Source: Gnetum montanum (lineage: Eukaryota > Plantae > Gnetophyta). From it: 64,000 nt of DNA. Of the stretch, positions 18,430 to 46,687 are shown one piece after another (the first letter of the stretch is position 1; each line of letters opens with the position of its first letter). The notes under the pieces are model-generated. The model was not told the DNA's origin, ran no database searches, and saw only the letters and a program-made list of their open reading frames with translations. A program made the position numbers and the translations under genes. The DNA is taken from NCBI GenBank assembly GCA_015680685.1, contig MNCI01000614.1, forward strand, positions 722,248-786,247, in the 5' to 3' direction.

Positions 18430-19299
18430 TAATGAAAGGTGAAGTAATCCAACATCCAACCATATAAGATACAAGTATTCATGTGTAGCCTGATCATAAT
18501 TTGTGAATAAGGTAATGTGATTATGCTAGTAATTGATTTGAGTTTGTGACCATTGTCTTCCTTCATGGAGCTAGTATAATCTATGCACATGGTTTAGCTC
18601 TCAGTAAGGTGTATGATATATTGATGTTGGTGGGTCATATCTCCCAGCTACAATGGTAAAGTGTGAAGATAGTTCTAAGTCTAAAGAGAATGGAAAACAC
18701 TATTCTAGCCTATGGCAATGAACATTTGGTCTTAATCTTCTGTTCATACCATCGGCTTCATGTAACTACCACTAGGATACCAAGTGTACTGCTACTAGGT
18801 GTACCAAGCAATAGCACCTCTAGGTTACCAAGTAGTCACACTTAAGTGCTCAAGATTAGTTGTACTTATTCTTCTTAACAATAGTAATGATAAAGTACAT
18901 AAAATAGTAAATCATTAACTTAGAAATAATAAGAAAATTATTCTAAGTGTAAATAGTAAACATTATGCTAAGTAAAGCAATAAATCTAGGAGAATGCTAC
19001 AATAGTAAGAAATAGTTCAATCTTTATTTTCAATCACACTTGTGCCCAACTATAAAATGCTCAAATAAAAATGTCATTCACTAATTCACACTACACTATA
19101 GGCATTTACAATTCTAATCACTAAGTCTAAGTTCACAAAAAAAATGAAAGAGCTTCAATAAGGATGGACTAAATTGTATGCATATGTGGCATGATATTCG
19201 ATATCTGATGTCATAGCATGGGCTTTGATATCAGGTATGCAATATCAACTCTAATATTGGATACCTAATATCGTAGCTACTCAAAATTTCACTTTATCA
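18430..19299 (-). repeat. 3' LTR of A1
   Basis: Colinear with 39466-40343 and begins TGATAAAGTG right after the PPT. Confidence 0.9.
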
Positions 19300-19489
19300 T
19301 ACCCCCACAACTGAATGAAAACTCATCTTCAAGTTAAAAAAAATGAGGATAGAGTTTCTTAAAAAATTGAAAGGTAGATTTACATGACACTGACTAACTG
19401 TATACATGACTCTTAAATTCCATAGTGGTGTTTTACAAATTTGACATAAGACATGACATGACAGCATTTGAATAAAAAATATGGTAAAG

Positions 19490-24154: not shown

Positions 24155-25060
24155 TGATGAGTGTCAAAGTGTCACATCGATGGGCCCTTGTCGACAGGGC
24201 CCTATTTACATGGCGTTGCCCCATTGACAAGGCTACATCAACTTAGTGTTTGCTATATTTACAAGGCCCCATCAGTGGAGCCATGTAATAAAAACTATAA
24301 ATACAAGATTACAACCATATTTATGGGGAGTAAAGTCATAGTAGTAACCAAACTCTTGCAATTTTTATATTCAAAAGTTAGAATATTTTCCTGAGTGCTT
24401 GCAGTAGGATTCATTGAGTGCATGGATCTTTATTCAAGCATTATTATACCTGAGAATGATAGTGTGTGTGGTAATAAAGACAAGCTTTTTGATAAACCTT
24501 ATAGCATTCTGGATAGTTTAAATGTTTTATTCATGCATTTAATGTTTTTTGTTATTTATTCAATGTTCCTCAATAATTAAGCTAATTAAGTGAGATAAGC
24601 TAAATAATGATTAAGTAAACACATAAGTACAACTACTTCAAGCATGCATATGACATTTGGCAATCTTAGTAGCACTTAACGCTTGGTAACCCAACAATGT
24701 TATATGTGTTTAGGTTGTGTACGAAAAGTGGGACCAGATACTTGTGTTATGACTAGTTGAACAATAGTTAGCTAATTAGATTAAAATAGACATTAAATTA
24801 CATTATTCTTTATCTTACTTATTTCAAGTACCAAAACCATAAAATATAAAATGATAAAAATCATATGCCTCGATTACACTTACCCATACCTTTGTACATC
24901 ATAAGTGTAATTGAGAAGATAATAAATGATCATTAGGACAAGGTTCACTTCTAAACTACTGGTGTACTGGAAGACATAAAGTCCATAGAATTCAACTAGA
25001 TCACACGTGAATGCTTCATGATTCATATGGTTGAGCATAGGGGTATTTCACCACGCATCA
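24155..25060 (+). repeat. 5' LTR of A2
   Basis: Direct repeat of 35319-36221; TATA (CTATAAATAC) at ~24295; AATAAA at ~24473. Confidence 0.92.
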
Positions 25061-25349
25061 TTTGCATCATTTTCGAGGACTCTTTTTGGTTGAAACATGT
25101 GCTAGATAGGATTAGTGAACATTACTAACATCATTGGATGAACCCCAAGGTCTACATCACTTTCACACGTAATATAATTATATAAGCACATTGATATTCT
25201 ATTTGTTTGCAAAATTTCTTTTTCTCTCAAGCTTGATGATGTTAAACCATTGGTCCCACAAGAGTGCAAGGTGGTATATACTCATTTAGATGAGTATGTG
25301 CCTAATTTCACCTTCATCCTACATCAGGATGAACAACTATGATGGTGCG

Positions 25350-28300
25350 AGATGGAAGGTAACATTGTAATGCCTCCTAATCAATCTATGCCTGTGATGC
25401 TACTTCAAACTCTTAAGAAGTTAGGCATTCATGATCTTCAAGGGGAGTACGTTGTGCATGATTATGACTACTAGGACTACTATCCCACTAAAACATAATG
25501 CCAAAGAGATCAACACCAAGATAAGCAACATGAGTTTGTGAAGGGAAAATGGTTCATCAATCCCTTGTTCCTGCTGAACCAAGACGACAATGTGGACCCT
25601 CTCTCTAGGGGCTCTCAACATGAAAATTCTCCATCCCTCATTACTAGTGATGGGGGTGTGAACCTAAATCTACATTCTACTATCAACAATCTAGGTTTAA
25701 GAAAAGATGACAATCAAGGCAGGGGCTTGGACAAGCATCAAGATGATAAGAAACTTGATGAATGTGTCTACAACAATTGAAGGGGAGTTGGCAAATACCA
25801 TGGTGGTGGGAATCCTCCTCCCTCTTCATCCTCTTCATCTGCATCTTCTTCTTCCTCTTCTCCTAGTTCTAAAAAATGCTGCAAAAGGAATAATCATGAT
25901 GGAGGTGAGCAACAAGATAATAATACTGATCGTCATGCCCATAATAATCGAAGGGGTAATAGGGGACATCATCGGTGATAATGAAATAAGATGATGATGA
26001 GCCTATACTAGCAACTTAAAGTATGCTTAACATTATAGAGGTAGTTAAGATCCCAACTAAGTATGTGAAAGATAGTTAGATTGAACACTTAGAAATGAAC
26101 AATATCCCAATATTTGAGGGGGAATATAACTCTAATCCATAAAATCATCTATAAGTCTTTCACAATGCCTATGCCTTACAAAACATAGAGAATGACTAGT
26201 AGAAACTGAAGTTATTCCCCAAGATACTCATCAAAGAGGCAGAAAGCTAGCATCATTTTTTATAACCAACATCCATTTGCAAATGGAGTACCATGCTAGA
26301 ACTATTTAATGAAAAATACCAAACGTACTCTAGAGTGTCTAATCTGAGAAGGTAAATCCAAGGCTAGAAACATGAAACACATGAACCCTTGGATGCTGCC
26401 ATGGACATATATTATTCTCTCTTACACTGATTCCTTGGACATGATTATTTTTAGAGGAAACAACTCCACCACATCATAGATTGGCTTAGAAAAGAAACCA
26501 AAATAACTCTTGGGGTTTATGCCCAAGAAAGACTCTCTGAACTAAGAGCTCATCCAATACAAAGGCTAATAGAGTCGATAGCAAAAGAAGAAGGTGAGTT
26601 GCAAAAAAGAAAAATTACAAAAAAATATAATACGAACCCTTCCATCAAGAAAATGGAAGTCTAATTCTATGACAAAGAGGAGTCACCACTCGACGAGGTG
26701 GTGAACAAGAAAATCTTACTTGTACAAAAATTTGTTTCTAATATTTTGACAAAGATTGATAAATTATGAGACTCTTTGGATGAAAAATTCCTACCAATTT
26801 TCTAGTGATCAAGGTATAAAACTTCAAAGGAAACTTTCCAATCATTATGGGATGTCCATGGTTGAGCATTGTTGATGCACAAATGGGCATCAAGGACCTC
26901 TCCTTGGAAATCTCCAAGGAGAATGAATTTGGATGGCTTGAGAAGAGGCAAGTTCCATGCATCATGTACAATGATAATGGGTGTAATTGTATGTAGAAAA
27001 TCTAGTCCATTAAAAGTACATTCCTTAAAGCATGTAATTAGTGTGCACATGAAATGGATATCCAAAGATGCCTAAATGTAGGAGCCACAAAACAAGAGGG
27101 TACCCAATGGCTGACAACTGACCTTGATCGCAACACACTATGCATGGAACCTACTAAGAGCCTAACATATGCCTATGTTGAGGGCATGGATGAACTTGAG
27201 CAAGTTCATCACCAACTATCTGATGATGAAGATGATGATACCTATTGGGGAGAGTTGGAAATACCTAATAATTTTAAGATAGAACCCCTAGAGTTAAAAA
27301 CTTTACCAACTAGCATGGAGTATGCATTTTCAATCTGGTTTATAATCAATGTAGATCTTGCTCCTGAACGAAAAAACAAGTTATTGAATGTGGTCGACAA
27401 ATGGCCAATAATTTTTACTTAGTTATATCTTGAACTCACTAGAATTGATTTTCAGATATGCCAACTTCACATTTACACCAACCCAACCATGAAGAAAAGA
27501 AGGTAGTCGTAAACGTAGCTAAACCCGTAGTTGAAGTAGATTGTCAAAGAGGAAATAGAATAACTCCTCAAGGTGGGGTTCATCTATTCCATTGCAAATA
27601 GTGAGTGGGTTAACCCACTCATAATTGTACCAAAGAAAGGTGGCAAGAAGTGGATCTTCATTGACTTTAGGCTATTGAATATGACAACATTTAAAGACCA
27701 TTTTCCATTGCCATTTGTGGACCAAGTGTTGGATATTATATCTGGGCATTACTATTATAGCTTCTTGGATGGTTAGAGTGGCTATAATCAAATCTATATT
27801 GCACCCTAAGATCAGTTCAAAACAACATTCATAAGTCCTTAGGAAACTTTTGCATATTGCAAGATGTCATTCAATCTATGCAATTCCCTTGCAACATTTC
27901 AATGCCTAGTCCTTAGTATTTTTTTAATAGTAGATTCTTAGTGGGGTAGAAGTCTTTATGGATGCCTTCTCTACCTATGGGGCTACATTTTGAGCAAGTC
28001 CTAGATCACCTTGAGCAAATACTAAAAATATGTATTAAAAAAACCTTAGGCTTAATTGGTAGAAAAGCTATTTAATGGTCCAGGAAGGCATAGTACTAGA
28101 GCATAGAATTACTTAGGTAGGGATTGAGGTAGACTCAGAAAAGATAAGGGTCATCTAAGAAATTACATGCCAACTAGAGATATTCAAAGATGTCTGATCA
28201 TTCCTTGAACACACTAGCTACTACCAATGGTTTATAGAGAATTTCTCTAAGATCACAAAGCCATTGGTCAAGCTTACAAAGAAAGATGCTTCATTCATCT

Positions 28301-30130
28301 AGACCAAGAAGTGTGAACATGCATTCCAACAACTAAAGGAAAAACTCATAGAAACTCCAATTCTACAGGTACCAAACTGGTCTAGACCATTTCATATAAT
28401 GACAAATGCATCTAATTATGTTTTTAGAGCCATGCTTATGTAGTTAGATGATAAGAAACATCCATGCTACATCCACTATGCAAATCAAAGCATTGTGGAT
28501 ACACAATTGAATTACACCACAACTGAGAAAGAACTAATCGTAGTGGTGTATGCTCTTGAAAAGATCAAGCACTATGTGCTTGGCTATAAAGTGTTTGTGC
28601 ACATAGATCACAATGCCATCTGCTTCCTAATGAATAAGCCAACGGTTAGCCCCCGTATCATACGGTAGCTCGTGATCTTACAGGAATTTGATATCACAAT
28701 GGTAGATTGAAAGGGGACTGAGAATGTGATCGTTGACAATCTCTCTTGATTAAGAAGGGATAACAAAAGAGGAGGAGAGCCACCTCTATGATCAATTTTT
28801 AGACAAACTCCTCTTTACAGGAGCAATAAATGACCAAGTGCCTACCGAACCAAAATGGTATGATGGCATCCTCACTTACCTTCTCACTCAAGAGATGCCA
28901 TAAGATCTGGACTTTAGAAAGAAACAACAATTTCTTCATCAAGCTAAGTACTTCATGGAAATCAACAAACACCTTTACAAGATGTGCGTTGATGGCCTGG
29001 TTCATTGGTATGTCCCTAATGTAGACTAATTACATGTTCTCTAGGATGTTCATGAAGCCCCTTGTGGAGGCTACCATGCTAGGAGATGCACGGCCATAAA
29101 AATCCTGATGGTAGGATACTATTGGCCTAAAATCTTTAGGGATGCTCACTAATTTGTTTGATCCTATGACTACTATCAATGAGATGGTGGATGACTGCAT
29201 GAATGGAGGATCCTCAACAATGGATTCAACCACTGGAGCCCTTTGACATATGGGGCATAGACTTCATGGGTTCCACCATACCCATGTCTAATAGAAAGGC
29301 ATACATCATTGTAGCAGTCAACTACTATATCAAATGGGTAGAAGTAATAGCCATCATCAACTATACATCATCCACTACTACTAGATTTGTACAACAACAT
29401 TTTGTGAATAGGTTTGGGGTATCATGTGCACTAATTTCTAACAATGGAACTCATTTTACAAGTGCCATTTTTTGAAAAATCATTAAATGCTTAGGGGTTG
29501 AACATAAACTAATAACACCCTATTACCCCCAATCCAATGGTTAAGAAAAGGTAACTAATAGGGAGATTACAGAGATTCTAATGAGAACTATCAACAAATA
29601 TAGAAGAGACTAGAGTGCAAAACTCAACAATGCCCTCTGGGCCTATCGCTCAATGTAGAAACTCCCTATAAGCTACTCTCCCTATGATCTAGTGTATGGA
29701 AAACTTCCAACACCTCTAATTCAATTCAAGCTCAATACATTCTCAATAGCCTAATTTGAATCTTAACCTAAGTCTAGCATGAAAAGAAAGATTGATCAAC
29801 CTAAGATGAAAACTGATTAGTGGTCCTATCTTCGAATGAAGTACACAAGGCATTCAATAAGCAATGACATGACCTTAGAATATATAAAGTAAAATTTCAA
29901 CCAAGAGATAAGGTTCTTTATTGGAGCCACACACATGTACTTTAGAAAACAAAGTTCCAAACATTAAGGGAGGGACCTTATATAATTGACAAAACCTTTT
30001 CCTTTAGGGCCATGTTAATCTACAAACCTGAGAGCACAAACAAAAAGTAGTTGGTCAACATCTAATAAGTAAGACCTTTCCAAGAGCCAAGCCAACATAA
30101 TAATCAATACCTCAACAAATGGGTAACCAT
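25350..30130 (+). pseudogene. pol: Athila-type gag-protease-RT-RNaseH-integrase relic of A2
   Basis: RT SEWVNPLIIVPKKGG...IDFRLLN...KDHFPLPFVDQVLD...YSFLDG; RNase H NYTTTEKELI.VVYALEK; integrase EPFDIWGIDFMG...IIVAVNYYIKWVE...ISNNGTHF and TPYYPQSNG. Frequent stops. Confidence 0.92.
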
Positions 30131-32227
30131 GCTCAATTTTTTGGATCTCCTCTTTCTAACATAGTTGTCGAGGAGATGACCATCCATACTAATCATTCAC
30201 ATGGCTCATCAAATTTTCTATATTTTTTTTACACATTTTTTTCTTTATAGTTTTTTATTTTACACTTTTTTTTATTTTCAAGATTTTTTCATATTTTACA
30301 CCATTTTTTTATTTTTCACCATCATTAGTACATTTTAATCTTTCTTGAATATTGTCTAATATATTTTACTTTGTTTAAGTATGATTTTCAAATTTTTGCT
30401 AATCAACGTGCTTTGTGCGAATAGGACATAGTCATGTTGTAGCTACTACTAATGGTGGTTTATGCTTAATGTTTTGTTTGCTAATGTTTGGTTTCTATTT
30501 CTAAATTTTTCTATAATGGCTGAGTCATGGTTTCTTTTTTATGGAGCAGGCAATGAGTCCACGTCATCCACCAATTCACAAACTCTATGGTTTTTCTTGT
30601 TTTGGTAGTTTGAGGTCCCTTTTCATTAAATAAACTTTTAATAAATTTGTGACATTAGTGATTTCTGGAATTGGGAAGGATTCAAAGGTTTGCACAGGGT
30701 GTGACTTCAAGGAGACTCAATACTCTTTGTACTTTTCTACTTACTTGGGTGCTTGAGTGTTTTCATAAACTTCTTATTGTTCCATGCCGATCAATAATAG
30801 GAAGTCAAATAAAGTCTTTTCATGGTGTGTTTTCCATCCAAAAAGAAAAGAAACAACACAAACAAAACAAAAACAAAAACACAATGGGAATTCAAAGCAC
30901 ACCCCTTAGACAAATAAATAGGCTATAAGAACTTGTTATAGGACTAGAAAGACGTGTTCCCATGCCTAAAGGTCCCCTCTGACTAAGGCCCTCTTTCACT
31001 TATTACTTCTCTTTTCTTCTCTTTATGAAATGGTGGTTGTTTTGTGGGAGCGCTCTTGTGTCTTGAGGGGGTAGATCAATCTTAGAGTGGCAATGTGAAG
31101 TCACTGAAAATGATTGGTTTTTGTCTAGACTAAGGATGGATCTCCTTAAGTCATTTTAAACACAAACTCCACAAGGGACTTCTTATGACCTCAATTCAAA
31201 ATTCCATTACACTTTTTCTAACATTCATCTCTCTTGTTCTTGATTTGGTGTCTTGGCCTAATGTACTTAAATTATTTGGTAGAATCTTCTATGTTTTAGT
31301 CCTTAACTTTCATCAACCATTAATCACTGATGGCATCCATGGACTCCTTTGGTTGACATTATGCAAAGGCAAACAAGACATGCGCCTACTATCGGGAGGA
31401 CCCACTTGCATCTCTCTTGGTTGTGTCATTAAGCATATTATCCTTAGGCATTCTTGTAATTAGAATCTTTTGTACATCCATCTTCTACATCAAACCATAT
31501 GCTCATTTATATATTTTTTTAATAAACACATTCTCTATAAAAATTTTCAATTTTTGAGCTTTCAAAGATCCTCTTCAACAATTTCATCATATTCTTGGCT
31601 TTTCTAGAACTCCATGAACCCCAAATTCATTTAAAAATTATTTGTATTTTTTAAGATATTCAAATTTCAAAATTTTCCATACAGGCTCTATATACAAGGC
31701 CCCATTGATGAATAAGGCGTGTATATGAGGCCCCATATACATGGCCCCCTTGATGTAGCAAAAAAATGCTATATATATATGTGCAATCCCACTTTGAAAT
31801 TTTCACATTTTGTCACAAACACCAAGGGAGGTTTTCAAATTTTTAGAGTCAAAAACCTTCTAGAGCCCATAAATTCCTCACTATTTATCCAAATCACTCT
31901 ATTCTTCGACCCTACAACTATCAAAGTTAAGCTCTTCATCATGGAGGCCACAAATGTGCCATTTTTGATAAAAAAAATTTCACCATTTTTCTAACTCCCA
32001 CAAAGGTTTAACTAAGAAATCAACTATTAAATACCAAATTACAAGAGTTAAACCTTTCCAACAAGCTCTAGTGACATTTACAATAAATAATTAATAAAAT
32101 AATAGTAAAATAATTAATCTATTATGGTTCAACCTTAGTCAAAGTGTAACTTACTAATGATAGAAGGTATTCAAAGTTTAAAGTTACATTTTATATCTAC
32201 TAATCCATGGGTGTGTTGTGACCACAG

Positions 32228-35073
32228 ATGGCACCAAAAGGGTAAAACATGCAAGAAGCAAGACCATCTCAACTAAGAGAAAAATGGGCTAGAATGGAAA
32301 GGGGCTAATAATAAGCCCAAGAAGAACCATTTTCAACCCATGCCATAAGTCCTCTTAGGGAAGAGGTCAAGGTGGAATCTATGTGATAGATTCCAAAACC
32401 AACAGCAGTAACAAACATCCCCATTGAGATGATGCACCATCCTAATAAGCAAATCTCGAGGTGACCTTGATAGAAGCCTACTTGAATCAAATTAGATCTA
32501 GGGATGTCCAAAAAATAATGCTCCAAGAGTTATTCTTTGGCCCTTTCCTGGAGCAAGCACCAAAAGAAATGCACGACCAATTGAAGACCTCTCTCATGTG
32601 GCCAATCCTCACTTCCACCAAGGAGTGGTATATGGAAGAGACATTTTTATTCTGGAACAATAGACAAGCTAGATCAATGATAAAAATCAAGGACATATCA
32701 GTGTCCTACTTGGTGCAAGCCATTCTTAATGTTCTTTGGTTGGTAGAAATAAGGATGAATCTTGTTGAGATTTGAATGCAAGTGAACCCCAACATCAAGA
32801 AAGAATGGATGCAACAATGCTATGGTATTAACCACAAGGAGTTTGGAGTGCTCACACTGGCAGAAAGGATCCACTATAAGATTGCAGTCTTCCACCTCAA
32901 TCCCATGGTGAGGCCAAGCAAAATTACTACCCTTTCTACCCATGCATGTGTTTCTCTGAGTGGGAGATCCCCTATCATTCTTCCACAACTGATATATCTA
33001 AAGATGGAGAAGTGATTTAAAGGAAATGAACATAGAAGAAAGGCACTCCCCTTTCCATGCCTCTTTAGAAAACTTTGTCAAAGGGGAGGAATAGTACATT
33101 ATACAAATAATGCTATCAAGTATGCTCTATTTTCTAACTGGGTAGAAATGATAAAAGATAAAATACCTACAACAACCATTAAGAAGAGGAGTAGCAACCA
33201 CCACCTCCACCTACCACTCAAACAACTATGTCATATGTCACTAAAATAGCCCAACGATTGCGTGAATATCAAGAATGGCTCTTGAGAAAACAAGAGCAAC
33301 AAGTAGGCACAAGTGGTAGGGACCCATCTATGTATTGACTAGAAAAGAGTCACCTAAATAAGATGGCCCAAACAATCAGCTTGATGGGTGGATGTGGATC
33401 CATTTTCTCAGCCAAAGAACACAATTGTCCACAAGGTTGAATCCTTGCACTAGAGAGGTCATGGTATCTCTCGTAGAACAATAGCCACTCCTAGAAATCT
33501 TTGGGAACACCACAACCTTTTTGATGCACTTAGAGGAAGGAAAGAAGGCAAAAATATTGGTGATGTAGCACCAAGGGTAGTAGATAGTAGTAGAGGTGGT
33601 TGCCTACCAAATTTCAAAAATCCTCAACACACCTATGGCATCTACACTAGATGTCACTATACTAAAAGATGTGCAAATGTTCATATGGATCACAAGCAAT
33701 AGAATAAATGCAGCACAACATAAAGAACTTCTGGATTGACTAGTGGGGATCAAGCAACTACATCTAGATGTCTTTGACCTTCTAGACAATATTACTACAA
33801 TCGAGTTAGAGTTGATAGAGGCAAGGGGCAAAAGCATCATCTTAGATGCACAAATCAAAATAGAAAAGAAGCTAAACAAATGCTTAACCACTAAAGTTTC
33901 CAAATTAAGAGCCCAAATTGCCGATCTTACATTTCTCAAGTCAGCATTAAAAAAACATGAAGCTCTTGCATAGCTTCACACTAGACTAAAAGGGGTTGAG
34001 GGTGTGATTGAAATGCTAGTGTTCTACTGATCCTTGGCAAGGGTCACATAACACAAAATTCAGAAGGCCTTGGATCAAACCATGAGAATGTACAATTGAT
34101 CACAAAGAACCATCACCTATATAATGTTGTTAAGCACAAACAGTAATTAACTGACTTCATCCATCAATAGCAAGAGCAATTGGCTAGAGAAAAAATAGAG
34201 ATAAAGAGACTGGCAGTAGAAAATATAAACCTCTCCATGGAGGAGGTCCATGCCCTTCACTACAAGACTACGATCAAGGTAGCTACCTAGAAATCATATG
34301 CTCTCAAGTTTGAGAGAGTCAAGGATCATTATAGAGATTAGGTCAGCCTACAAAAGGAAGTGAATGAAAAAAACATCTAGTTGACAAAGGTAAAAGTGAA
34401 TGAAACCCTGCAGCAACTCTAGCAAGAAAGAGAATTGTGGCAGCCTATCATTGATGAGATAGATGCCTACAATAAAGTGAAAATCTACATGAAGTAGTTG
34501 CAGATTGAGGAGAAGATAGAATACATGAAGCTTGCCAATCTCCAATATCCAAATATGACCATGTTAATTTTTGAATGGCCATACTTAGAATTAGAAGAGG
34601 TTGGCCAGCTTGTACTTGTTGTACAAGGCAAAGTTTAAGCATCACAAAGACACCAAGCAAAAGCTTGTAGTGGCAAACACTGAACTTGAAGTTCTCAAGT
34701 GCAAATACACTAATCAAAGATCTACCACCAAGAACCTGGCCAGAAGGATGAATGCCTACCAGAAGCAGCAAAACACAGTTAGGTTATTAGATGTTGAATG
34801 TAAATAATTTGCTACCTAGTTTGTCAATACTAATGAGTTATTTCCAGTAATGCCTTGTTCGTGAAATATCCCCATTTTAGCTTACATTGGTGATGCCATG
34901 TGGACTGTGAGTGATCCCTAGAGTAAGGAGGAGAAGATAAAGGAAATACTAGATGTCTTTCACCTTCCAATGGAGGTTGTAGACATAGCAGGATAACCAC
35001 AACTACCTCAACCACCACATGTGTTTGAAGCTGGTGAAGGCCCTTCAAAACCTCAGGAGCCTCCACTACTTAA
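32228..35073 (+). pseudogene. Accessory ORF2 relic of A2 (Transposase_32-like domain, Pro-rich linker, coiled coil, conserved C-terminal domain)
   Basis: CACAG|ATGGCACCAAAA start; YKIAVFHLNP...LPQLIYLKMEK...LPFPCLFRKLC; coiled-coil ORFs at 33743-34807; C-terminal FVNTNELFPVMPC...AYI..A.W..SDP. Confidence 0.75.
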
Positions 35074-35318
35074 GACTATCTGATCTTCTCCACTGCCTTC
35101 ATGCCATTAGAGAATGTGCTATCCAATTTTGTATTGTCATGTCATGGTGTTCAATTTTGTGTCATGAACACCACAATTTTTGTAATGTGTTGATTTGTAC
35201 ACTCAGGCAATTAGTTTTTTTATGTTAGTTTATTATGTCAAGAGTCAATTAATAATCCCATACCTTTCCAATTTTGTAAATGACCTTGAGGATGAGTTTT
35301 CATTCAATCATGAGGGTA

Positions 35319-36221
35319 TGATGAGCATCAAAGTGTTCGTTCAATGGGCTCCCATTAGTGAGGCTCCATTTACATTGTGTTTCCCCATCGACATAATATT
35401 TGCTACATCCATGGGGCCTCGTCAATGTAGCCATGTAATAAAAACTATAAATACTAGCTCACAGTTGTTTTTATGGGGAGAAAAGTCATAGTAGTAGCCA
35501 AACTCTTCTAGTTTTTACATTCAAAGGTTAGAATATTTTCCTGAGTACCCGTAGCATGAGTCATTAAGTGTATGGATCTTTATTTGATCACTATTGTACC
35601 TAAGCATGATAATGTATGTAGCAATAAAGATGAGATTCTTGGTAAACCTTGCAGCATTCTAGATAGTTTAAATGTTTTATTCATGCATTTAAATTTTTTA
35701 GTTATTTATTCAATGTTCCTTAATAATTAATCTAATTAAGTAATTAAGTGAGATAAGATAAATAATGATTAAGTAAATACATAGGTGTAACTACTTCGAG
35801 CATGTGTATGATGTTTGGTAATCCCAGTAGCACTTAACACTTGGTAACCTAGAAATGTTATATGTGTTCAAGATGTGTATGAAAAGTGGGACTAGATACT
35901 TATGTTAGGACTAGTTAAACAATAGTTAGCCAATTAGATTAAAGTAGACATTAAATTACATTATTCTTTATCCTATTTATTTCAAGTACCAAAACCATAA
36001 AATATGAAATGATAAAAATCATATGCCTTGATTACACTTAACCATACCTTTGTAAATGACAAGTGTAATTGGAAAGATAATGAATGACCATTAGGGTAGG
36101 GTTCACTTCCTAGAAGACTAGTGTACTAGAAGAAATAGAGTTCATAGAATTCGATCAGATCATGCATGAACAGTTCATGATTTGTATGGTTGAGTGTAGG
36201 GGTGCGTTTCACCACTCATCA
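35319..36221 (+). repeat. 3' LTR of A2
   Basis: Direct repeat of 24155-25060. Confidence 0.92.
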
Positions 36222-36299
36222 ATAACTAGGTTGCCATTTTGGAAGGTTGGTCCACAATTACATCCTTTGCTTTTAATAGTAATGGATGGAATCCATTAT

Positions 36300-39150
36300 A
36301 TATGTATGACTTCATGCTTATCTTCCTTAGATATTTCTACAAATAAATCTCTCATTCATAACTTAGCATTAATTGTGCAAAGTCATGCCCTTCCCATGAT
36401 AATTGGAAATTCCTTGTCTTCATTTTTCACATCAATTATAATAAAGTTTTCCAAATAAGATCACTCATTAATAGTCATCAACACATCCTGTATCTATCCC
36501 AAACAAATGGCAATAGACTGATCTACAAGCTCCAACCTTATATTACACTCCTTCAAGGGTGGTATGTTCCATGCTTGATATGTTTTCTAAGAGATCAATA
36601 TCACCCCTGAAACTAAGTCTAATAGAGCTTTGTATGGTATATTTCCAACTACTGATAGGTAAATCAAAGGAACTCCTAGATAAATTCTCTTCTTAGGAAG
36701 TGGCCCTACCTTTATCCAAGCTATGACTATTTTTGTGAGCATGATAGTTTGCAATTTTTTTTTATTATTTTTGCATGTTTGTGTTGCATGATGATGGAAG
36801 CTTGTTTTTGGTAAGAGAATTTATTATAGGAGAAGTTGTTCTTGATGAAGTTCTAACTCTACCAGTGTTTTAAGGACTTGTCCTAAAGAAGGGATATTTC
36901 TTCATTTGGCCCTTAGTGTTGCTAGCAAGATCATCTATTTATATGTTCACTATTCTTGTAGCTTTCCTCTACTACAATTATGATGGAAATTACCCTTGCA
37001 TAGCAAGTGGTGGCACTAGTGATAAAGGATTAGAAAAGGGATTTGATGGGCTAGCTACTAGTGAATGTGCATAAGGACTATGATCCACCCTTAGAATAGT
37101 AGGTCTATAGTATTCTGGTGGATAATAAGGAGAAGAAGTTTGAACTGATGTGTTTCCTAAAGATATTGGACATTGAACATAATATCCATAATGGTCTAGT
37201 CTCTTGTATTGATATTTTTTCCTAGTGGTAACATTGTCCATATCTATGGTTGTTACCACTACTACTGATATTGCTCCTATAGTTGAGGGTAGGCTCTGCT
37301 TTGGTAATATGTCAGCTAGAAGAGTTTCCTGATATTACCTTGAGTATAAGGTAGCCTTCTGGGCATCTGCTTTTTGAAAAAGCTTGGATTAAGTGCATAT
37401 ACCCCAGATTCTTACAAGTGAACCATAATAGGACAACATCCTTTATGATGTTCATATTGGCACACATTACATCCTTCCTCTTTCTTTGAACTAAAGTCAA
37501 TATACCCTTCAACAGTAGTAACTTTTCCTTTGTGCTTATAAATTTCTTGTACATAATCTCTTTTCTTCTTTCTTTCCTTGCCTCTTTTAACTACTTGTTT
37601 AGTCTTTTCTTCCACAATCTTTGGGGCTTTAGCAAACGTTTCATCCATTGAATCCAAAAATTTTTGTACCTTAGTCACTATATCATTGATTGTTTTTTCA
37701 ATAGGTAGAGTCCTTTTTTGGATAACATCTTCCAAGGTTTCATCCTCTTGCTTTTCACATATCCACAAATCTCTCTTTCTAATTGATGGATCTCTATTAT
37801 ACTACTCAGTTAATTCCCTTTTTTCTTAATTCATCTTTTTCCTTCACCACTTGGTCGATTAGTCTTTGAATGTGATGGGTAGTCATTTCTGATAATCTAC
37901 CTTGGTCATAAACCCCAAGAGTCTCTCTGGTTTTACTTTACAACCCATCTACAATGTGCTTGAGCTATTCCCTTGGTAAGAATCCATGGCCTAGAAATCT
38001 ATGTAACAGTGAATAGTAACTACCCATTGCTATATCAAGGGTTTCGTGAGTCCCTTACTTCCATCCCTGGATCTATTTCTTAAGTTGGACACTCACTAAT
38101 AAGTCTGATATTTAACATTGAAGATCTTTAGCATGGTACTCCAATGTCTAATTAATTTAGGTTAGAGTGATCTATATCAGCTCTTTGCCTTCTTCACAAG
38201 TATTCTTGGAAATAGCTTTAACTTTTGATAGACACTTTCGATATTCTGTAGGATGCAAGCATTGTGGAAAGCTTAGAGGTGGTATTGTGGATCAACATTA
38301 TAACCACCTTTAAATCTTGGCATGTTGTTCATATCAAGCCATTTGATATAGATATCCTTCACATGCCTAGTTGGGATGTGTATAGCCTCTTGTATGTTAA
38401 TCATGTTGCAATTTTTCATTAGGGTTTCATCATCTCAATCAAGTTCATGTAGTAGGTTGTAGTAGTGTCCCCTTCTATGCTCATCCCTTTCATGATTTTT
38501 GCAATCCCTATGTCTGCATTTCTCATATTCTTCATCTTCCAAATTAGAATGTCCTAAGTAATAGCCATGATGATCACAATGATCATGAGTTCTCCTCTCT
38601 TCCCTGTCATGATCCTTGTACCTTTGCCTCCTTTTGTTAGAGTCTTCTGATGATCATGAGGATCCAGACAAGATAGTAAGAGAATAGTGTTGAATTTTCC
38701 TCTCATGGTAACTCTAATGTTTGTCTCTATGGGATCTAGTAGGAACTCTTGGCCTTGAGTCCTACTTGTGCCTTGATTCTTTTGCCTCATGCCTAAGCAT
38801 CTCTGCTAATTTAGAGGATGCTTTATTCTTGAAAGGTTCCTCTAGTTGAATGATAGGTGTTTGTGACTAGAACTCATGATCTTGGTGGAGTTATTCAATG
38901 ATGAATGCATCTCCATCATGCTCCTCCAAACAAATATTAGAGTTGACTATCTTTCCTTTGTCTTGTTCATGTTTACTTTTCATGGCATGGTCTTTTCTTA
39001 ACTGCTCATCAGTAGGATCATATGGTCAAGTCATGTATTTGATTTCATGATATCCTCCAAGTGCTTCACTTAGTTTCATCTCCTTGAGAGTATTTTGGAC
39101 CATAATGGGTGCCAAATGCCTTGGTGGTAGAACAACATTCCCTTATAGAT
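36300..39150 (-). pseudogene. gag: gag-protease relic of A1
   Basis: Gag motifs homologous to A2 gag (LDMNNMPRFKGG, LKLFP.ILVKKAK); protease LSVVGNIPYKALLDLVSGVILIS at ~36590-36660 and EFPIIMGRA*LCTINA at ~36365-36412. Confidence 0.75.
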
Positions 39151-39465
39151 CTTTCCACCTAAGTTTTCTATCTTGATAAAAGATGAATGTGAAATTGGGA
39201 TAGTAAGGATTGTGATGACCATATGAGGTCCTTATTTCCATTGGCATACTGCAGTCCTCTTCTTCAATGATTTTGTCATTTCTTCCTTATGATTCCTTGG
39301 CATGTGATGTTGTATCCTTATTTGAAGCCATATTGTATTTTAATATGTGTGTTTTAAGTGTGCTTTTCTTAGAATTATGAAGTTTAACTTTGTGTTCCAG
39401 GTACAATGAACTTTATGAAATCAATTACTAAGCATACATTAACTTGTTCCTAGTACGGATACCAA

Positions 39466-40343
39466 TGATGAGCTATGGAGTAATCCAACACTCAACCATA
39501 CAAGATATGAGTGTTCAAGCATAGCTTGATTGTAATCTATGGATAAGGTAATGTGATTATGTTAGTAATTGATTTGAGTTCATGACCGTTGTCTTCCCAC
39601 ATGGAGCTACTATAATCTATGCATATGGTTTAGCTCTCAGTAAGGTATATGATATATTGATGTTGGTGGGCCATATCTCTAGCTATGATGGATAAGTGTG
39701 AAGATAGTTCTAAGTCTAAATAAAATGGTAAATCATATTATAGCCTATGGTTGTCCTAGTTTTCCATTCATACATTGGGCTTCGTATAACTACCACCGGG
39801 ATACCAAGTGTACCACTACTAGGCGTACCAAGCAATAGCACTACTGGGTTACCAAGCAATCACACTTATGTAATCGAGATTAGTTGTACTCATTCTGCTT
39901 AATAATAGTAATGGTAAAGTGCATAGAAAAGTAAATCACTAACTAAGAATAGTAAGAAAATTATTCTAAGTGTAAATAGTAAACATTATGCTAACTAAAG
40001 CAATAAATCTAGGATAATTCTGCAATAGTGAGAAATAGTTTGATCTTTATTTCCAGTCACACATGTGCCCAAGTACAAAATGCCCAAATAAAGATTTTGT
40101 TCACTACTTCACAATACACTACGAGCATTCACACTTCATGAAAACAAACTAAAAGAGCTTCAGTAAGGGTGGAATGAATTGTGTTATTACCCATGTGTCT
40201 AAGTGTCATATATATAGGCAGGCATGTGTGGCACGATATCAGATATCCAATGTCATAACATGGGCTCGAAGATTGGGTACACGATATCATGGCTCCAACA
40301 TTGGATACCCAATATCGTAGTAGTTCAAAAATTCACTTTATCA
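39466..40343 (-). repeat. 5' LTR of A1
   Basis: TGATAAAG...CTCATCA on minus strand, followed by TTGGTATCC PBS-like site at 39451-39465. Confidence 0.9.
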
Positions 40344-41416
40344 AAGACATTTCCACTAGGTTGGTTAGAGTTAGCCCTAGTTGGGGCCTCCCTTGCTCTT
40401 CTAAATAGCCTTTCCACATAATAAATGTAAGAATACTTATCAAACTTTCATATTTGATTCCATCTTATAACATCATGCTAACTAGGCTTATGCTAGAAAG
40501 GTATTACATAAAGAAAATTAAAATGTATAGATCAAATGACATTCAACTTAAGAAAATCACATGATATCAAAGAAATTGTAATAGACAAAGTAGTAGGTAT
40601 CCATAAAAATAGGTACATAGGAGTAGAAAAATGTATGAATAGAAAATTAAAAAACATTAAAAAATAGTGACAATAGCTCCATGCATATGAAACCTAACTT
40701 ATCTACTAATAAAAATAGTTCAATGTCCTATTGCTTAAGACAAAATTATAGTAAACTAGAAACTTAGTAGAATAACTATATGAAAATATATTAAGAATAA
40801 TAAATACATTAAAAGACATTAAAATTTAACTTAATAAAAAAATCCAATATAGAAATAAATATCTATGACAAAGGTAGAAATACCTCAAGGATAAGAAATT
40901 ATAAATCCTTATAGATAATCAATAGGTAATACATATTACCAAACACTAGCTACACATCATGACCTAGAAGAAAATAAACAAGCTAGTAACTTAAAAATTA
41001 TATATATATATATATAAAGAATACTCTAAGCATCAGCTTCTCCTTCTAAATTTTCTTCCTCACAACTAATTAAATCACTTGAAAAATATAAAAATAAAAT
41101 GAAAATTAGTTTTAATACTGATTAGAGAAAGTAAACTATAGATACTCCCTTATGGATTTTGAAATCAGGCATTAGGTTGTTGGATAGTCATGCATAAGGA
41201 TAGCTATATGTAAGGATTTAGCATGAAAACATACATACATATCAAAAATCATACATTAATCAAATCCAAAATTAATCAAAATTAATATAATGTCTAAAAT
41301 TTTCCACCACCATCTATAAGCCCAAATCAAAAATAAAACTAAATGAATGATTCTTACTGAAGAATGCAACTTACATAAGTATCTAGTTACTTAGCAAGAA
41401 AGACAACTTGCATGAG

Positions 41417-44400
41417 TGATGTGCGGTGAGATACCCCTATGCCCAACCATACAAATCACAAGCGTTCACTCATGATCTAATCAAATTCCATGGATGGGAC
41501 TAGTTGTGGCATCTAGATCACTATGCCTTGATCACAATTCGCTATCTTTCCACTTAGACTAGTGGTATCTTTGTCACGTATGGTTTAGTCCAAAGTGAGG
41601 TATATGATTTTTATTATTTTATGTTTTACAAGTTTAATTGCCTACAACAAGAATAAAAGGTAGAGTAATTAGATATCTAGTTCATTTATTGCCTATCTAG
41701 CCTAACACAATAACCATCTCACTTTCCCAGACACATCCTGAACACATATAGTGTTGTTGGACTACCAAATGTTAAGCGTTGCTGGGTTACCAAGTACTAT
41801 ATGTATGTTCAAAGTGGTTGTGCTTGTGTTCATCAACAACTAAAAGGCAATTGCTTAATTCAAATGCATTAAAGTAAAGTACATAAAAGTAAAGTGTATT
41901 AAAGAAAATATTAATCTATTCTTAGTGCTACAAGGATTGTCAAAAGAGTTCATTTTTATTCCCATCACACTGCTGCACTTAGGTACATCAATGCTCGAAC
42001 AAAGAACCATATACACTTAAACTTCTTTTGTGAGCACTTATAAAATATTCTAACTTTGGAGAAAATAAGCCATAAGAGCTTTTCTACTCTAACTGAAAAC
42101 TAACAAAAACTCATGTCAAATCAGGAGCCCATGTGCTATATTTATAGGCCAACATATACCTCGTGATGTCGGATACCCAACATCGCATCTAGGCTCCAAC
42201 ATTGGATATCTGACATCGGATCTGATGAAAAAATGTATTTCATCATACCCCCATAACTAAATGAAAACTCATCCTTGAGTGTAGAAGAGGAGGAACAAGT
42301 TCCTTACAACATATTGGGAAGGTATGAGATTATTTACTGACATACAAACTAACTAGATAGAATAGATAGATTGTGAGTGCCCAAGTGTACAAAGTTACAA
42401 TTTTTACGAAATTGGATGTTCATGAAAAGATAAGGGAACACCCTAGAGAAAATTGACATCTAGCACCTCTTGGCAACAAAAGAATGATAGAGAAGATCCA
42501 ATGATCATGAACGATTGTCATTGTGTGGTATTGTTGCATCATCCTTAGTGAAGATAGTCCTGCTTCTAGTCCATGCTTCCCACTGCAATCACAACAGAAT
42601 CATGAATTAGTATGTAATGTATAACACATAGCTATCAAATGCTTTGTCTAATCAATGGTTACACTTGACTAATTTGTGATTGTGGTAGATTGATTCCTTT
42701 AGTAGTGTTAGTGAGAAGGCTGACAAATAGGGTCAAATAGATAAGTAGTCCATTAAATTTGCAAAGGTTTAATACAAGAAAATATTTGAAGAGGATGTAA
42801 GAATTTACAATAATAAAAAGGAAAATTCACTGAAAAATGTTGTAAATATGTGCACAATTGGATGTCATTGATGGGTTAAATAAAAAGATTTGATTGTAAG
42901 AGTGTCTAGGGATAAACAACTTAACTATCCCAACCAAAAGATATGCAAGTGGGTCCTCCCCAAAGTAGGCACAGGCCTTTTATGCCCTTGCATAACTTCA
43001 AACTAAAGAGTTCGTGGGCTTTGAGATGATTAATGATTACAAAAAGTTAAGTACAAAAACCTAAAAGAAACTAACTAAGAATTCTAACATATCAAACTAG
43101 GACATTGAACTAGAACATGAAACCAATAGTGAGGTAAAACATGGAAAGCATAGATGGATGAGAGAGAGTGGAATGGAGTTCCTAATTAATGTCACATGAA
43201 GCCCCTTATGGAATTTATGGTTAAATGACTTTAATAAGATCCATCCTTAGTCCAGACCAAAACCAACCACGTTCAATGACTTCGCATCACCATTCTAAGA
43301 CCAGTCCATCCTCTATGACATAGAAGTGCTCCCATAAAACAACCATTGTTCCTTATTAGAGAAGAAAAGAGTAGGAAATGTGAAAGGGCCTCACTTAAAG
43401 GGAACTAGTCCCATAACCAATGCTTGTAGCCCATTTATTTTACCTAAGGGTTATGTTTTGAATTTCCATCATTTTTTTTTGAAATGGGAACCACACCATG
43501 CAAAGATGTATGCATTTATTTTGTCTAAGGGGTGTGCTTTGAATTCCCATTGTTTTTTTTTTTTTTTTTTTTTTGAATGAGAACCACACGATGTAAAGAT
43601 GTATGCATTTATTTTTTCTAAGGGATCTTCTTTAAATTCCCATCTTTTTTTTATGAGAACCACATCATGCAAAGACTTATTCAACTTCCTTTTATTAGTC
43701 AACATGAAACAATAAGAAATCCATGAAAACACACATGCACCCAGGCAAATAGAAAGACACAAAGAATATGAAATTCTCTTAAAGCCACACCTTGTTCAAA
43801 CCTTTGAATCCTTTCCAATTCCAAAAACTACCAAAGTCTGAAATTTGTCAAAGTTTTTTTAATGAAAAAGGGATTGCACATTTCCAAAACAAGGAAAACC
43901 ATAGAGTTTGTGGATGGGTGGATGTTGTGGACTCACTGCTTGTTACATGGAAAAAAAACCATGTCCTAATTATCTATAACAAAATTCAAAGCCAGAATCC
44001 AAACAGAAACAATCAAATAACAAAAATAGTACATACCACCATCAATCAATACATTACCACTGTACCTGGCACTTATTAACAAAATGTTAGCAAATCACAC
44101 CAAAATAAAAGAAAATATAAAAGAAAGTGTAGAATATTCAAGAAATAGAAAATGTACTGACAATGGTGTAAAATAAAAATTAGAAAAGATTATTAACATG
44201 AAAACAAGAAGATGTAAAATAAAGAATGTGTAAAAAAAAAGATGAAAAACACTTAAGAATCTTAAAGATTAGAATGGGGGATGACCCCCACAACTAAACA
44301 TTTGGCCATGAAAAGGATTAATAAGTGAATAAATAGGATCCATGCATGTATGAAACATTGGTAACCATCTGTGCTCGAGCCACTAGGTATCTATTTATGG

Positions 44401-46687
44401 TGTGATGGCTGGGTAGAAAAATTTTTGGTCACACACTTGATGGTTAAACATATGGTGGGTTAGGGTATGAGGTGTGTTAACGTTATGGATGGTTGGCCCA
44501 CGATAGCACCCTTGATCATGATATGGTATGCATGGATTTTTTTGTCTCCCCACACTATTAGATTTATTGTTTGGATTTAGGATTGGAGTACCGATAGATG
44601 ATGGCCTTTGTGTATGATCAAAGGACAATGGTTGAGACAAGGAAGGTGGTTCACCAAATTTGCCTTGTGCTAGCTTAGATAATATGGTGGGTCCATGTGT
44701 GATCTACTTTGGCTTATAACCTTTCCTCCAAAAGGGATGTTTCCTATGTTGTAGTTGAGACCCACTAGTGTCAGTATTTTTATGCACATTTGCAGCATAA
44801 GTGGCACTCATTTGTGGATATTGGGGTGCTGAACCTTTCTATGTTACTAGTGGTGGCATGTAATTTTGTGGAGTAGGAGGATATTGAGGGTAGGATGGAT
44901 GGTAAGAGACGTGAGGTGGCGATCCTTTAGGGGATGTCATAGGTTGATGGTACTTGGGAGAGTGGTAGTGGCGATTTGAAGTAGATGATGTAAAGCTAAT
45001 TGGAGAAACAAGGTGTTGAATGTAATATCCATGTGCTTTCGACAGATAGGGTGGATAGTATTGATTTGGTGGTGGCCTCTCCCATGACTGTGGTAGATAA
45101 CCATGTTGAGGTTGGTAATAAGTCCCCCTAGGTTGGTACGATTAGTTGTGGGACTATCTATAATTACCTTGTGGGAGAGAAAATCTCTTGAGCATGTGCT
45201 TTTACACAAACTTTGAATTTAAGGTGTCTGCCCAATACTCCTATAGATGTAACAAGACTAGTCAATGGCCCTTTGGATGGTCATATATGCAGATGTTGCA
45301 TCCATTATCTTCATCTATGGTTGGGCCTATAGCCTCACTTTCTTCAACCATTTTTCCTATTTACTGAAAAGTGTTCATAGCTATTTCTTGGTTCTGTATC
45401 CTTTGTTTATTATGATCACCTAGCTTATTTTTCATGATCCTCTCCTTGACCATCTCAATGAGAGTTGTAATGTTTTCATACATCCATTTGGACATCCTAT
45501 TAAACTTTGCTTCAAGTTCATCAATAGACTCCTGTATTGGTAAGATTTGTTGCAAGGTCACCTTATCAAGAGCAATTTTGTTCTCCTTACCATAGATCTA
45601 GACCTCCTTCTATTGAAGAGTTAAGTCCCATTGATATTTCTCGACCTTCTCCCATTTGCACATCTCTCTTTCTTCTTTTGCCACACACTCTATTAGTTCT
45701 TGGATTTAATGGGCTTGGAGCTTGTATAATTGCCCTAAGGCATACATCCCAAGAGTCTCTCATGTTTCATTACAAAGCCCATCTATGATGTGGAAAATTT
45801 GCCTTTCCTCAAAGAAACCATGGCCTGGGCATCTATTCAGTAAGGCATAATATCTATCTAGGGCCATGTCCAAGGGTTCATGTTGTTCTTATTTCCACTT
45901 TTGGATCAATCTCCTCAAATTGGACACTCTTGCATAGGTTTAGTATTTCTCATTACCCAACCATACGAATCATAAGAGTTCATGCATGACCTAGTCGAAT
46001 TCCATGGATGGGACTAGTTGTGGCATCTAGATTGCTATGCCTTGATTGCAATTCATTGTCTTCCCACTTGGACTAGTGGTAGCTTTGTCACGTATGGTTT
46101 AGTCCAAAGTGAGGCATATGATTTTTATTATTTTATGTTTTACAAGTTAATCACCTACAACAAGAATAAAAGGTAGATTAATTAGAGATATAGTTCATTT
46201 ACTACCTATCTAGCCTAACACAAGTAATCATCCCACTTTTCCAAACACATCCTAAACACATATAGTGCTGCTAGGCTACCAAATGTTAAGTGTTGCTAAG
46301 TTATCAAGTACTATATGTATGCTCGAAGTGGTCATGCTTGTGTTCATTAACAATTAAAAAGTAATTTCTTAATTCAAATGCATTAAAGTAAAGTTAATTA
46401 AAGAAAACATTAATCTATTCTCAACACTACAAGGATTGTCAAAAGAGTTCATTTTTATTCTTGTCACACTGCTATGCTTAGGTACATTAGTGCTCGACCA
46501 AAGAACCGTACACACTTAGAATCCTTTTGTAGGCACTCAGAAAATATTCTAACTCTAGAGAAAATAAATTGCAAGAGCCTCACTACTTTGACTGAAAACT
46601 AACAAAAACTCATGTCAAACTAGGAAACCAAGTGCTATATTTATAGTGTCATTGATGTCAAAGTTGATGAAAAAACATGTTTCATCA
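41417..46687 (-). mobile_element. Athila-like element A3, internally deleted non-autonomous (gag fragment only)
   Basis: LTRs 41417-42245 and ~45955-46687. Perfect TSD ATGAG at 41412-41416 and 46688-46692. PPT TTATGGGGGTA. Gag fragment ~44400-45950. Internal non-coding region is homologous to A2 30550-31200. Confidence 0.9.
43432..43676. repeat. Tandem triplication of an ~85-bp unit inside A3
   Basis: Three copies of ATTTATTTT..CTAAGGG...TTTRAATTYCCAT..T(n)..ATGRGAACCACA..ATGYAAAGA; a single copy occurs in A2 at ~30885-30920. Confidence 0.85.

Follow-up and report, generated by a model that had tools for sequence, protein, structure and literature searches.

Covarying modules shared by the LTRs of related retrotransposon families suggest a structured RNA leader in Gnetum montanum

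Why do the long terminal repeats (LTRs) of divergent retrotransposon families, lying within one stretch of Gnetum montanum DNA, carry the same motifs at the same position? The window analyzed here is the whole 64,000-nt stretch of contig MNCI01000614.1 (positions 722,248 to 786,247). An original prediction for three other families, A1, A2 and A3, ascribed the motifs to selection on a lineage-wide cis element of variable copy number. We found the modules in the LTRs of all three, as well as in a fragment at 61581-61733 (A4) and in a young solo LTR (family Y), for which an unrelated LTR served as the insertion site. The features, in window positions, are as follows.

62758..63766, + strand, young solo LTR of family Y, ends TGATGAG...CTCATCA, 5-bp target duplication
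62809..62817, + strand, TATA box of Y
62928..62998, + strand, module M0 of Y, two mirror-oriented loops around an 8-bp stem
62984-62989, AATAAA, likely poly(A) signal, within the 3' arm of the M0 stem of Y
63063..63123, + strand, module M1 of Y, short form, two tandem loops
63134..63257, + strand, module M2 of Y, two tandem loops and two TGG-loop-CCA hairpin cores; the type nearest A1 and A4
63274..63344, + strand, module M3 of Y, short form; both central-stem arms differ from M1/M2
63366..63480, + strand, module M4 of Y, the type common to A2 and A3
63590..63738, + strand, U5 domain of Y, with a 13-bp covarying stem S1 (63590-63637) and a pseudoknot candidate
5878..6150, - strand, partial second Y LTR (3' portion, 93.8% identity), interrupted by an N; contains the U5 domain
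24155..25060, + strand, A2 5' LTR, with a decayed primer-binding site after it
24417..24486, + strand, M0 of the A2 5' LTR
24625..24743, + strand, M4-type module of the A2 5' LTR
27432..29730, + strand, decayed A2 pol in Ty3/gypsy order (RT ~27430-28140, RNase H to 28780, integrase 28907-29730)
32300..35100 (approximate limits), + (sense) strand, decayed extra reading frame of A2 after the integrase
35319..36221, + strand, A2 3' LTR, 83.5% identity to the A2 5' LTR
35567..35636, + strand, M0 of the A2 3' LTR
35783..35901, + strand, M4-type module of the A2 3' LTR
41417..42245, - strand, A3 3' LTR (M0 41947-42015; M4-type module 41708-41825)
45955..46687, - strand, A3 5' LTR, 3' end indistinct (M0 46446-46514; M4-type module 46222-46339)
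39466..40343, - strand, A1 5' LTR (M0 40038-40104; M2-like module with three hairpin cores 39745-39891)
18430..19299, - strand, A1 3' LTR (M0 19015-19081; M2-like module 18720-18867)
61581..61733, + strand, A4, LTR fragment of a further A1-like type (M2-like three-hairpin module with its own central stem sequence)

The host elements are related Ty3/gypsy plant retrotransposons, likely of the Athila clade. They have paired LTRs with TG...CA termini (the A1 3' LTR ends in TA, and the A3 5' LTR end is indistinct) and 5-bp target duplications that are exact for A1, A3 and Y and show one difference for A2, and A2 encodes RT, RNase H and integrase in that order. In public runs, the sequence just past the ends of Y-family LTRs looks like an Asp-type primer site; the A1 primer site differs from it. 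This non-Met site fits Athila, as does the sense extra frame after the A2 integrase, which is related to sequences in A1 and in the element at 59-3606, although both features, like long non-coding regions, are common across OTA and not specific to Athila. The best named matches to the A2 integrase piece are unlabelled angiosperm element proteins (45-53% identity). Since only ~130 nt separate RNase H from integrase in A2, a decayed copy, there is no additional RNase H between them; presence of that domain is described as a mark of Tat (PMC6317226). RT, RNase H and integrase matches are absent from A3 and from A1, uncertainly so for A1 because of an assembly gap (21739-21986). That both nevertheless keep LTR pairs and target duplications fits cis signals served by proteins supplied in trans.

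All five strings originally quoted for A2 occur in 24625-24745 and four of them in 35783-35903, where the first is altered, whereas the string quoted for A3 is a composite, two of its four pieces lying in 41705-41830 and the other two in 46215-46345. Assignment to the M4 type holds for A2 and A3, but A1 is M2-like. Each A1 copy has the three predicted hairpins as TGG-loop-CCA/CTA cores, with two of three fitting the exact pattern and all three a looser loop; A1 has not kept hairpins alone, however, and retains the whole double-loop frame.

The modules sit 3' of the TATA box, in the predicted R/U5, and represent one of four conserved blocks. The TATA box itself is at the equivalent position in six of the seven LTRs, missing from the A1 3' LTR. 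With segment limits placed on motifs, between-family alignment gave z-scores of 6.8 for TATA-M0, 8.1 for M0, 8.8 for the module and 10.9 for the U5 block, versus 2.8 and 2.9 for the spacers and 1.3 for U3. The U3 regions had been described as largely unalignable with the young LTR; those of A1 and A3 align with each other (72.5% over 120 nt). U3 is short (~50-140 nt), and it was the wrong control region, as the LTRs are homologous from the TATA box through the 3' end and the modules are 3' of that box. The spacers adjoining the modules are clearly less conserved than the modules (2.8-2.9 versus 8.1-8.8), so the outcome originally named as refuting the idea, equal conservation of the flanks, did not occur, and selection on a cis element of variable copy number is supported. 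The motifs are indeed kept, but are not singled out by their retention, three other LTR blocks being about as conserved as module 4. For "lineage-wide," the evidence covers five LTR types in the window and the young family in runs under six organism codes.

A profile built from the Y/A2/A3 module recovered its five training copies, together with Y module 2, both A1 modules and the fragment at 61596-61724; the non-training matches had E-values of 8e-6 to 5e-4, and nothing else in the window fell below E 3.6. The A1 module aligned better with Y module 2 (z 8.9, 9.2) than with module 4 (z 4.7, 6.8). Joints in the public runs correspond to deletion of whole modules or of their hairpin inserts.

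The pattern reverses after insertion. In the LTR pairs of dead elements, transversions are flat (0.030-0.036 per site), and transitions reach 0.12-0.15 per site in blocks versus 0.06 in spacers. In Y, blocks hold 5.8-7.3 CpG per 100 nt versus 1.6-2.0 for spacers, and the faster decay fits neutral decay of CpG-rich blocks. Given that the blocks decay fastest within each dead element, selection probably acted during replication.

What recurs is an internal loop in which CGA faces G-N2/3-CGG-N; CGA is on the short strand in 10 of 10 loops of Y. The loops come in pairs, one on each side of a 6-8 bp stem, for which there are five sequence classes. Across 18 module copies the arms of a given stem pair with each other at 5.83 of 6 positions, compared to 3.07 of 6 for 240 cross-class swaps, a test that inflates the self score by picking the best-pairing arm near the expected place and that mis-registered one copy, the A3 5' M0. 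Because the paired halves change together, the modules likely fold in the element RNA. Helices that we drew from sense-strand folds of Y contain 113 proposed pairs (99 Watson-Crick, 13 G-U and 1 mismatch), and folds of the sense strand are more stable than the antisense in five of five modules. Folding z-scores are strong for M3 (-4.3) and borderline for M1 and M2 (-1.8), with no signal for M4 (0.3) or M0 (0.5); the leader as a whole scores -1.2. In Y M4, the outer stem is missing from the free fold (-34.4 versus -33.1 kcal/mol constrained). The TGG/CCA hairpin cores and the U5 stem S2 are near-invariant, such that covariation does not probe their pairing. Of 40 among 200 rows of Y variants in the public runs, 10 fall in stems, where 8 keep or form a pair and the other 2, as far as the table shows, break one; paired changes of this kind can be mimicked by M1/M3 cross-mapping or CpG decay.

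Covariation across families is strong in the U5 domain. In a sequence-only alignment of eight copies, which represent four families only, 90.5% of S1+S2 cells are paired versus 26-39% in slid controls, and 22 cells changed on both sides compared to 8.6 +/- 2.2, a count that none of 500 shuffles equalled. S1 forms fully or largely in independent folds of seven of the eight copies, and its loop in Y, AACCATAC (63603-63610), is complementary to GTATGGTT (63731-63738). This stem, and the AATAAA-bearing module copy present in all seven LTRs, were absent from the original prediction. AATAAA is invariant in the seven M0 copies, each with a complementary arm; covariation among these copies did not exceed that of shuffles (score equalled in 58 of 500), and an M0 covariance model found only its seven training copies in the window (next E 0.53), missing M1-M4. 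A decay-tolerant descriptor search was non-discriminating (five matches, three of them true modules, versus 0-7 in 12 shuffles), and MAFFT misaligned two- against three-hairpin modules. Taken together, the module blocks are homologous, better conserved than the spacers, and have covarying stems, and to judge from sequence the modules very probably contain selected sense-strand RNA structure.

What would this structure do? The reading that we favor, tentatively, is a folded 5' leader of an Athila-like element in which Gag binds the repeated loops, with packaging as its main role. In this model, transcription would start just 3' of the TATA box and R would end soon after AATAAA, leaving M1-M4 and the pseudoknot domain as U5, and hence present a single time per genomic RNA, at its 5' end. 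Two loops flanking a 6-8 bp stem, about one helical turn apart, would let a multimeric protein bind cooperatively, and more modules could give greater avidity. M0 likely masks the poly(A) signal: with AATAAA buried in the predicted stem of this mirror-image module, we propose that binding there damps premature 3'-end cleavage in the 5' LTR. The pseudoknot domain, adjoining the primer-binding site, may have a role in priming or dimer formation. The case for a pure packaging role is weakened by the U5 location, since a signal there would be shared by every spliced RNA that this promoter yields.

Contigs from two RNA-seq runs on record (one study) span 62991-63392, with depth below 1 upstream of 62963 and zero downstream of 63424, in small runs for which there are contigs only; two runs of uncertain kind span the whole Y LTR. 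RNA libraries can contain DNA, and we do not take the coverage gaps as evidence, since library selection for structured RNA could look alike. It is a doubtful idea that, after 3'-end cleavage, the U5 array persists as a discrete, stable RNA of ~350 nt, protein-protected or self-processed, acting as a decoy or regulator from every LTR, solo LTRs included. In the same reading, the CGA / G-N2/3-CGG-N loop would be an undescribed building-block motif of Athila-like elements, arranged in tandem pairs in U5 and in mirror-image pairs where it covers the poly(A) signal.

Parts of this evidence would also suit control of the poly(A) signal in the 5' LTR through hairpin cores bearing G-GT, after the model in PMC3694450, which we consider unlikely. 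AATAAA lies in the predicted M0 stem in all seven copies and is the sole AATAAA 3' of the TATA box in Y, the cores read G-GT-purine in almost every copy, and GGTAA occurs 4 times versus 1.0 expected (P ~0.02, one of 9 motifs tested). However, the G-GT letters belong to predicted base pairs of the hairpins, the loop repeated in M1 and M3, which lack such hairpins, goes unexplained, and a second switch would be needed because the same modules are in both LTRs. Quite unlikely, in our estimation, is a host factor bound by the modules for nuclear export or long-leader translation, like the MPMV constitutive transport element (CTE), an IRES or a shunt, even though M0 resembles the CTE in its mirror-symmetric pair of similar loops. 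The Y leader has fewer ATGs on its sense strand than expected (6 versus 11.6 +/- 2.6; P ~0.01, one of 9 motifs), with no such shortage of CAT, but a low ATG count is expected of any scanned leader. CTE-like elements are reported for the MLV 5' LTR (PMC9143442); in Rfam, the sequences here resemble no known export element or IRES.

Another alternative is that the modules cleave themselves or block nucleases and thereby set free a stable U5 RNA, much like the ribozymes of retrozyme LTRs. In its favor, catalytic or tertiary motifs typically combine near-invariant loop letters with stems that covary freely, U5 contains a candidate pseudoknot, and RNA-library contigs cover M1-M3. The idea is very unlikely, given that Rfam searches to E 1 in the window and to E 10 in the young LTR matched no ribozyme family, and that a cut in U5 would strip the genomic RNA of its cap and R. 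Highly improbable is common ancestry alone, or a set of DNA-level factor binding sites. LTR homology does run from the TATA box to the 3' end, and raw identity is close (0.63-0.69 for blocks versus 0.60-0.64 for spacers), yet z differs threefold, because shuffled identity is higher for the AT-rich spacers. In addition, the blocks are the more mutable parts, and both stem arms change together, as DNA sites would not need; the U5 stem covariation largely refutes this explanation.

We found no description of the modules in Rfam or the literature. Rfam returned no match in the window at E up to 1 and three weak, unrelated matches in the young LTR (E 0.057-8.9); neither matched hammerhead, hairpin, twister, HDV-like, pistol or hatchet models, or a 5S rRNA or tRNA-like segment of the Cassandra type. 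No homologue turned up in microbial and viral collections. In pattern scans, the modules had 8 + 10 matches among viral contigs and 13 among metagenome contigs, and the U5 motif had 4 in prokaryote genomes; we take all 35 loci as chance, as none aligns to the window. A protein scan of the viral contigs and a search among longer proteins gave no relative, and a PDB search found nothing. We considered a resemblance to the sarcin-ricin loop, kink-turn, SRP Alu domain or HIV Rev-response element and dropped it because AGUA falls in a covarying stem, tandem G-A pairs are missing and Rfam has no match.

Little is known about RNA selection for packaging and passage of the 5' poly(A) site in plant Ty3/gypsy elements, and one LTR-modelling study failed entirely to model the LTRs of plant Metaviridae (PMC3601003). 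Our data document a defined, modular, covarying RNA architecture common to divergent families in one window. The motif could act as a structural marker in solo-LTR classification.

The HIV-1 poly(A) hairpin holds its signal in a stem within R, the MPMV CTE has twin-loop symmetry, and retrozymes and Cassandra/Helenus/Ajax, as here, carry structured RNA inside plant LTRs. Unlike retrozymes and Cassandra, the elements described here gave no hammerhead, 5S rRNA or tRNA match, and A2 at least is full-size with pol. To our knowledge, no sequence is shared between these modules and the Ty1, Ty3 or HIV-1 leaders. As in HIV-1 and in the foamy-virus 5' LTR control described in PMC3694450, a poly(A) signal lies in a predicted R stem, but this stem is flanked by two mirror-image copies of a loop that recurs downstream. 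A hairpin with repeated internal loops and possible protein binding resembles the MPMV CTE (PMC9143442), from which the modules differ in their 5' LTR position, plant host, loop sequence and lack of an Rfam match. Sirevirus motifs, as presented in PMC2829016, are likewise CG-rich, variable in copy number and kept across divergent plant LTRs; those are Ty1/copia, palindromic and upstream of the promoter, whereas the modules are Ty3/gypsy, 3' of the TATA box, strand-asymmetric and covarying. In Ty1, Ty3 and HIV-1, packaging, dimerization and priming signals are described within a structured 5' end (PMC11381356), and Gag possibly favors the 5' pseudoknot of Ty1 as a binding site (PMC6844567). The structured 5' end by the primer-binding site and the pseudoknot candidate resemble these leaders, as do the likely roles in Gag binding, dimerization and packaging; what sets the present leader apart is a predicted U5 of ~750 nt and its construction from a single internal loop repeated 4 to 10 times.

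The window is plant DNA, dense with decayed LTR elements, and contains no stop-free frame of at least 150 codons. Elements were delimited by self-comparison and terminal checks; they are listed here, with one further conserved stretch:

39466-40343 and 18430-19299, minus strand: LTRs of element A1, 79% identical
24155-25060 and 35319-36221, plus strand: LTRs of element A2, nested inside A1, 83.5% identical
about 45955-46687 and 41417-42245, minus strand: LTRs of element A3, 85% identical
62758-63766: Y, a young solo LTR, with a partial second copy at 5878-6150
near 61534-61735: A4, an A1-like LTR fragment
35285-35318 (plus), 19300-19333, 42246-42278 and about 62-102 (all minus): conserved stretch of four elements, immediately 5´ of the polypurine tract, with hairpin potential and a GATGAGTTTTCA core

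Reverse transcriptase (RT), RNase H and integrase of A2 lie in Ty3/gypsy order, with an extra sense-strand frame 3´ of integrase. A decayed frame of this kind is common to three elements (32300-35100, plus; 380-2918 and 19951-20298, minus), and the pieces scanned matched no informative Pfam family. In public sequencing runs, Y-family LTR ends are followed by a primer site that we take to be of the tRNA-Asp type; the A1 primer-binding site (39440-39465, minus) departs from this type, which Y and A2 share, and its start resembles the third A1 hairpin core. Domain order, extra frame, primer site and pol motifs make Athila the likely clade. Matching gag pieces of A2 versus A1 and A3 reach at most about 57% identity as decayed protein, and the three families are thus well separated. 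No pol was detected in A1 and A3, though their LTR pairs are kept; A3 (41417-46687, minus, about 5.3 kb) is flanked by a target duplication and retains some of gag and the non-coding region that follows integrase, and is perhaps a non-autonomous derivative. Also present are another RT/RNase H region, a more distant one (12192-13262, plus), a module-free, unrelated LTR family (3629-4828, 7598-8822 and 61990-64000, plus), and, amid repeats, exons matching Na_Ca_ex (53159-55036, plus); these belong to a host gene for an exchanger of either the cation/proton or the sodium/calcium kind.

Y is built from a repeated internal loop, one strand of which carries CGA (10/10) and the other G-N2/3-CGG-N. 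Y modules have a 6-8 bp stem between two such loops, oriented the same way in M1-M4 and mirrored in M0, a module overlooked in the original prediction. The M0 stem includes an AATAAA that is invariant in 7/7 LTRs; Y has no other AATAAA 3´ of its TATA box. Central stems fall into five sequence classes and one variant; own arms pair at 5.83/6 versus 3.07/6 for swapped arms (18 copies, 240 swaps), in a test that picked the best-pairing arms and included one mis-registered copy. Two or three TGG-loop-CCA hairpin cores sit inside each long module. The folding z-score was strong for M3 only, -1.2 for the whole leader, and not better than shuffles for M4 and M0; the outer stem of M4 was missing from its free fold, covariation of M0 among orthologues did not exceed shuffles, and the M0 model did not recognise M1-M4. 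A further hairpin is predicted between TATA box and M0 (62864-62893, plus) in Y and some other copies, within a block conserved between families. A perfect G/GTAAGT splice-donor-like site (63460-63466, plus) lies in module 4 of Y and is missing from its A2 and A3 counterparts.

The strings originally reported for the A1, A2 and A3 LTRs are present where they were placed, except that the A3 string combines pieces of both A3 LTRs and that the 3´ LTR of A2 has one string in altered form. Below E 3.6, a profile from Y, A2 and A3 modules found only the five copies it was trained on, together with Y module 2, A4 and the two modules of A1. The modules of A2 and A3 are of the module-4 type, and the A1 and A4 modules are nearer module 2 (z 8.9-9.6) than module 4 (z 4.7-7.4); Y has both long types and two short forms.

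Selection had been argued from retention of the motifs beside largely unalignable U3 regions, but U3 is not the right control because the LTRs align over everything 3´ of U3, starting at the TATA box. With segment limits placed on motifs, between-family z relative to shuffles was 1.3 in U3, 2.8 and 2.9 in the first and second spacers, and 6.8 (TATA-M0), 8.1 (M0), 8.8 (module) and 10.9 (U5 block) in the remaining segments. The module stands well above both spacers; raw identity varied little (0.60-0.69). Comparison of the two LTRs within each dead element gave a flat transversion rate (0.030-0.036 per site), and transitions of 0.12-0.15 in blocks versus 0.06 in spacers; CpG in Y is 5.8-7.3 per 100 nt in blocks versus 1.6-2.0 in spacers. 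Therefore the most mutable parts of the LTR are the best kept between families, which supports a selected cis element. The LTR pairs of dead elements gave no sign of constraint after insertion, and we infer that selection acted on the replicating element, not through host co-option. Comparison of existing copies suggests the original loop state in A1-A4. GATATC-like repeats occur in the U3 of Y (62770-62800, plus), A1 (40218-40340 and 19175-19299, minus) and A3 (42148-42244, minus), with none in that of A2; in public runs, Y-family U3 has tandem copies variable in number.

The cleanest evidence comes from a further U5 domain, in which a 13-bp stem is joined by an 8-bp helix between its loop and a distal segment. 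In a sequence-only alignment (8 copies, 4 families), 90.5% of cells are paired and 22 are changed on both sides, versus 8.6 +/- 2.2 in shuffles (0/500 as high). The 13-bp stem forms in full or large part in 7/8 independent folds; the 8-bp helix is nearly invariant, and the pseudoknot is thus a candidate only.

In public runs, 15/24 rows, labelled with six organism codes, contained at least half of the words of the young LTR. Ten stem variants of Y occur among the 40 of 200 variant rows listed, with the pair kept or formed in 8/10, a count to which M1/M3 cross-mapping and CpG decay may add. Joints delete M1, M3, M2 plus M3, or hairpin inserts alone; module number therefore varies within the Y family, in line with the variable copy number originally proposed. 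A single study supplied two runs recorded as RNA-seq, and their contigs span 62991-63392, possibly from DNA in the library.

Passages in PMC3601003 describe an R/U5 border marked by AATAAA and then a G/T-rich stretch in animal Metaviridae and retroviruses. By its position and the U-rich tract after it, the AATAAA of M0 would be a poly(A) signal; R would then measure about 170 nt, with U5 made up of the modules and the candidate pseudoknot domain and present once per genomic RNA, at its 5´ end. Conserved loops, freely covarying stems, spacing of about one helical turn and variable number point to possible binding by a protein that forms multimers. Gag would be the likeliest partner by analogy with Ty1, Ty3 and HIV-1 (PMC11381356; PMC6844567), and signals working with proteins supplied in trans would agree with A1 and A3, where the LTR pairs persist and no pol was detected. 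Protein bound at M0 would also keep the AATAAA closed. A rival explanation of the modules is poly(A) suppression through putative U1 sites (PMC3694450). A putative role in export or translation (PMC9143442) draws on a deficit of ATG (6 where 11.6 would be expected), ATG being among 9 motifs tested, and a self-processing RNA is a further putative alternative.

We conclude that the module architecture is real and selected, in predicted R/U5 of Athila-like LTRs, and that it likely acts at the RNA level. At E up to 1, Rfam matched nothing in the window, and its three matches in the young LTR were weak and unrelated; 35 pattern matches in viral, metagenome and prokaryote collections were all chance. 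A search of mostly open-access literature, judged at listing level, returned no description of such modules, nor any of Athila LTR stem-loops with compensatory changes. The repeated motifs of Sireviruses (PMC2829016) differ in superfamily and position, and retrozymes and Cassandra-type elements carry known RNA families for which Rfam gave no match here. Structured retroelement leaders are known; one built from a CGA / G-N2/3-CGG-N loop motif was not found described.
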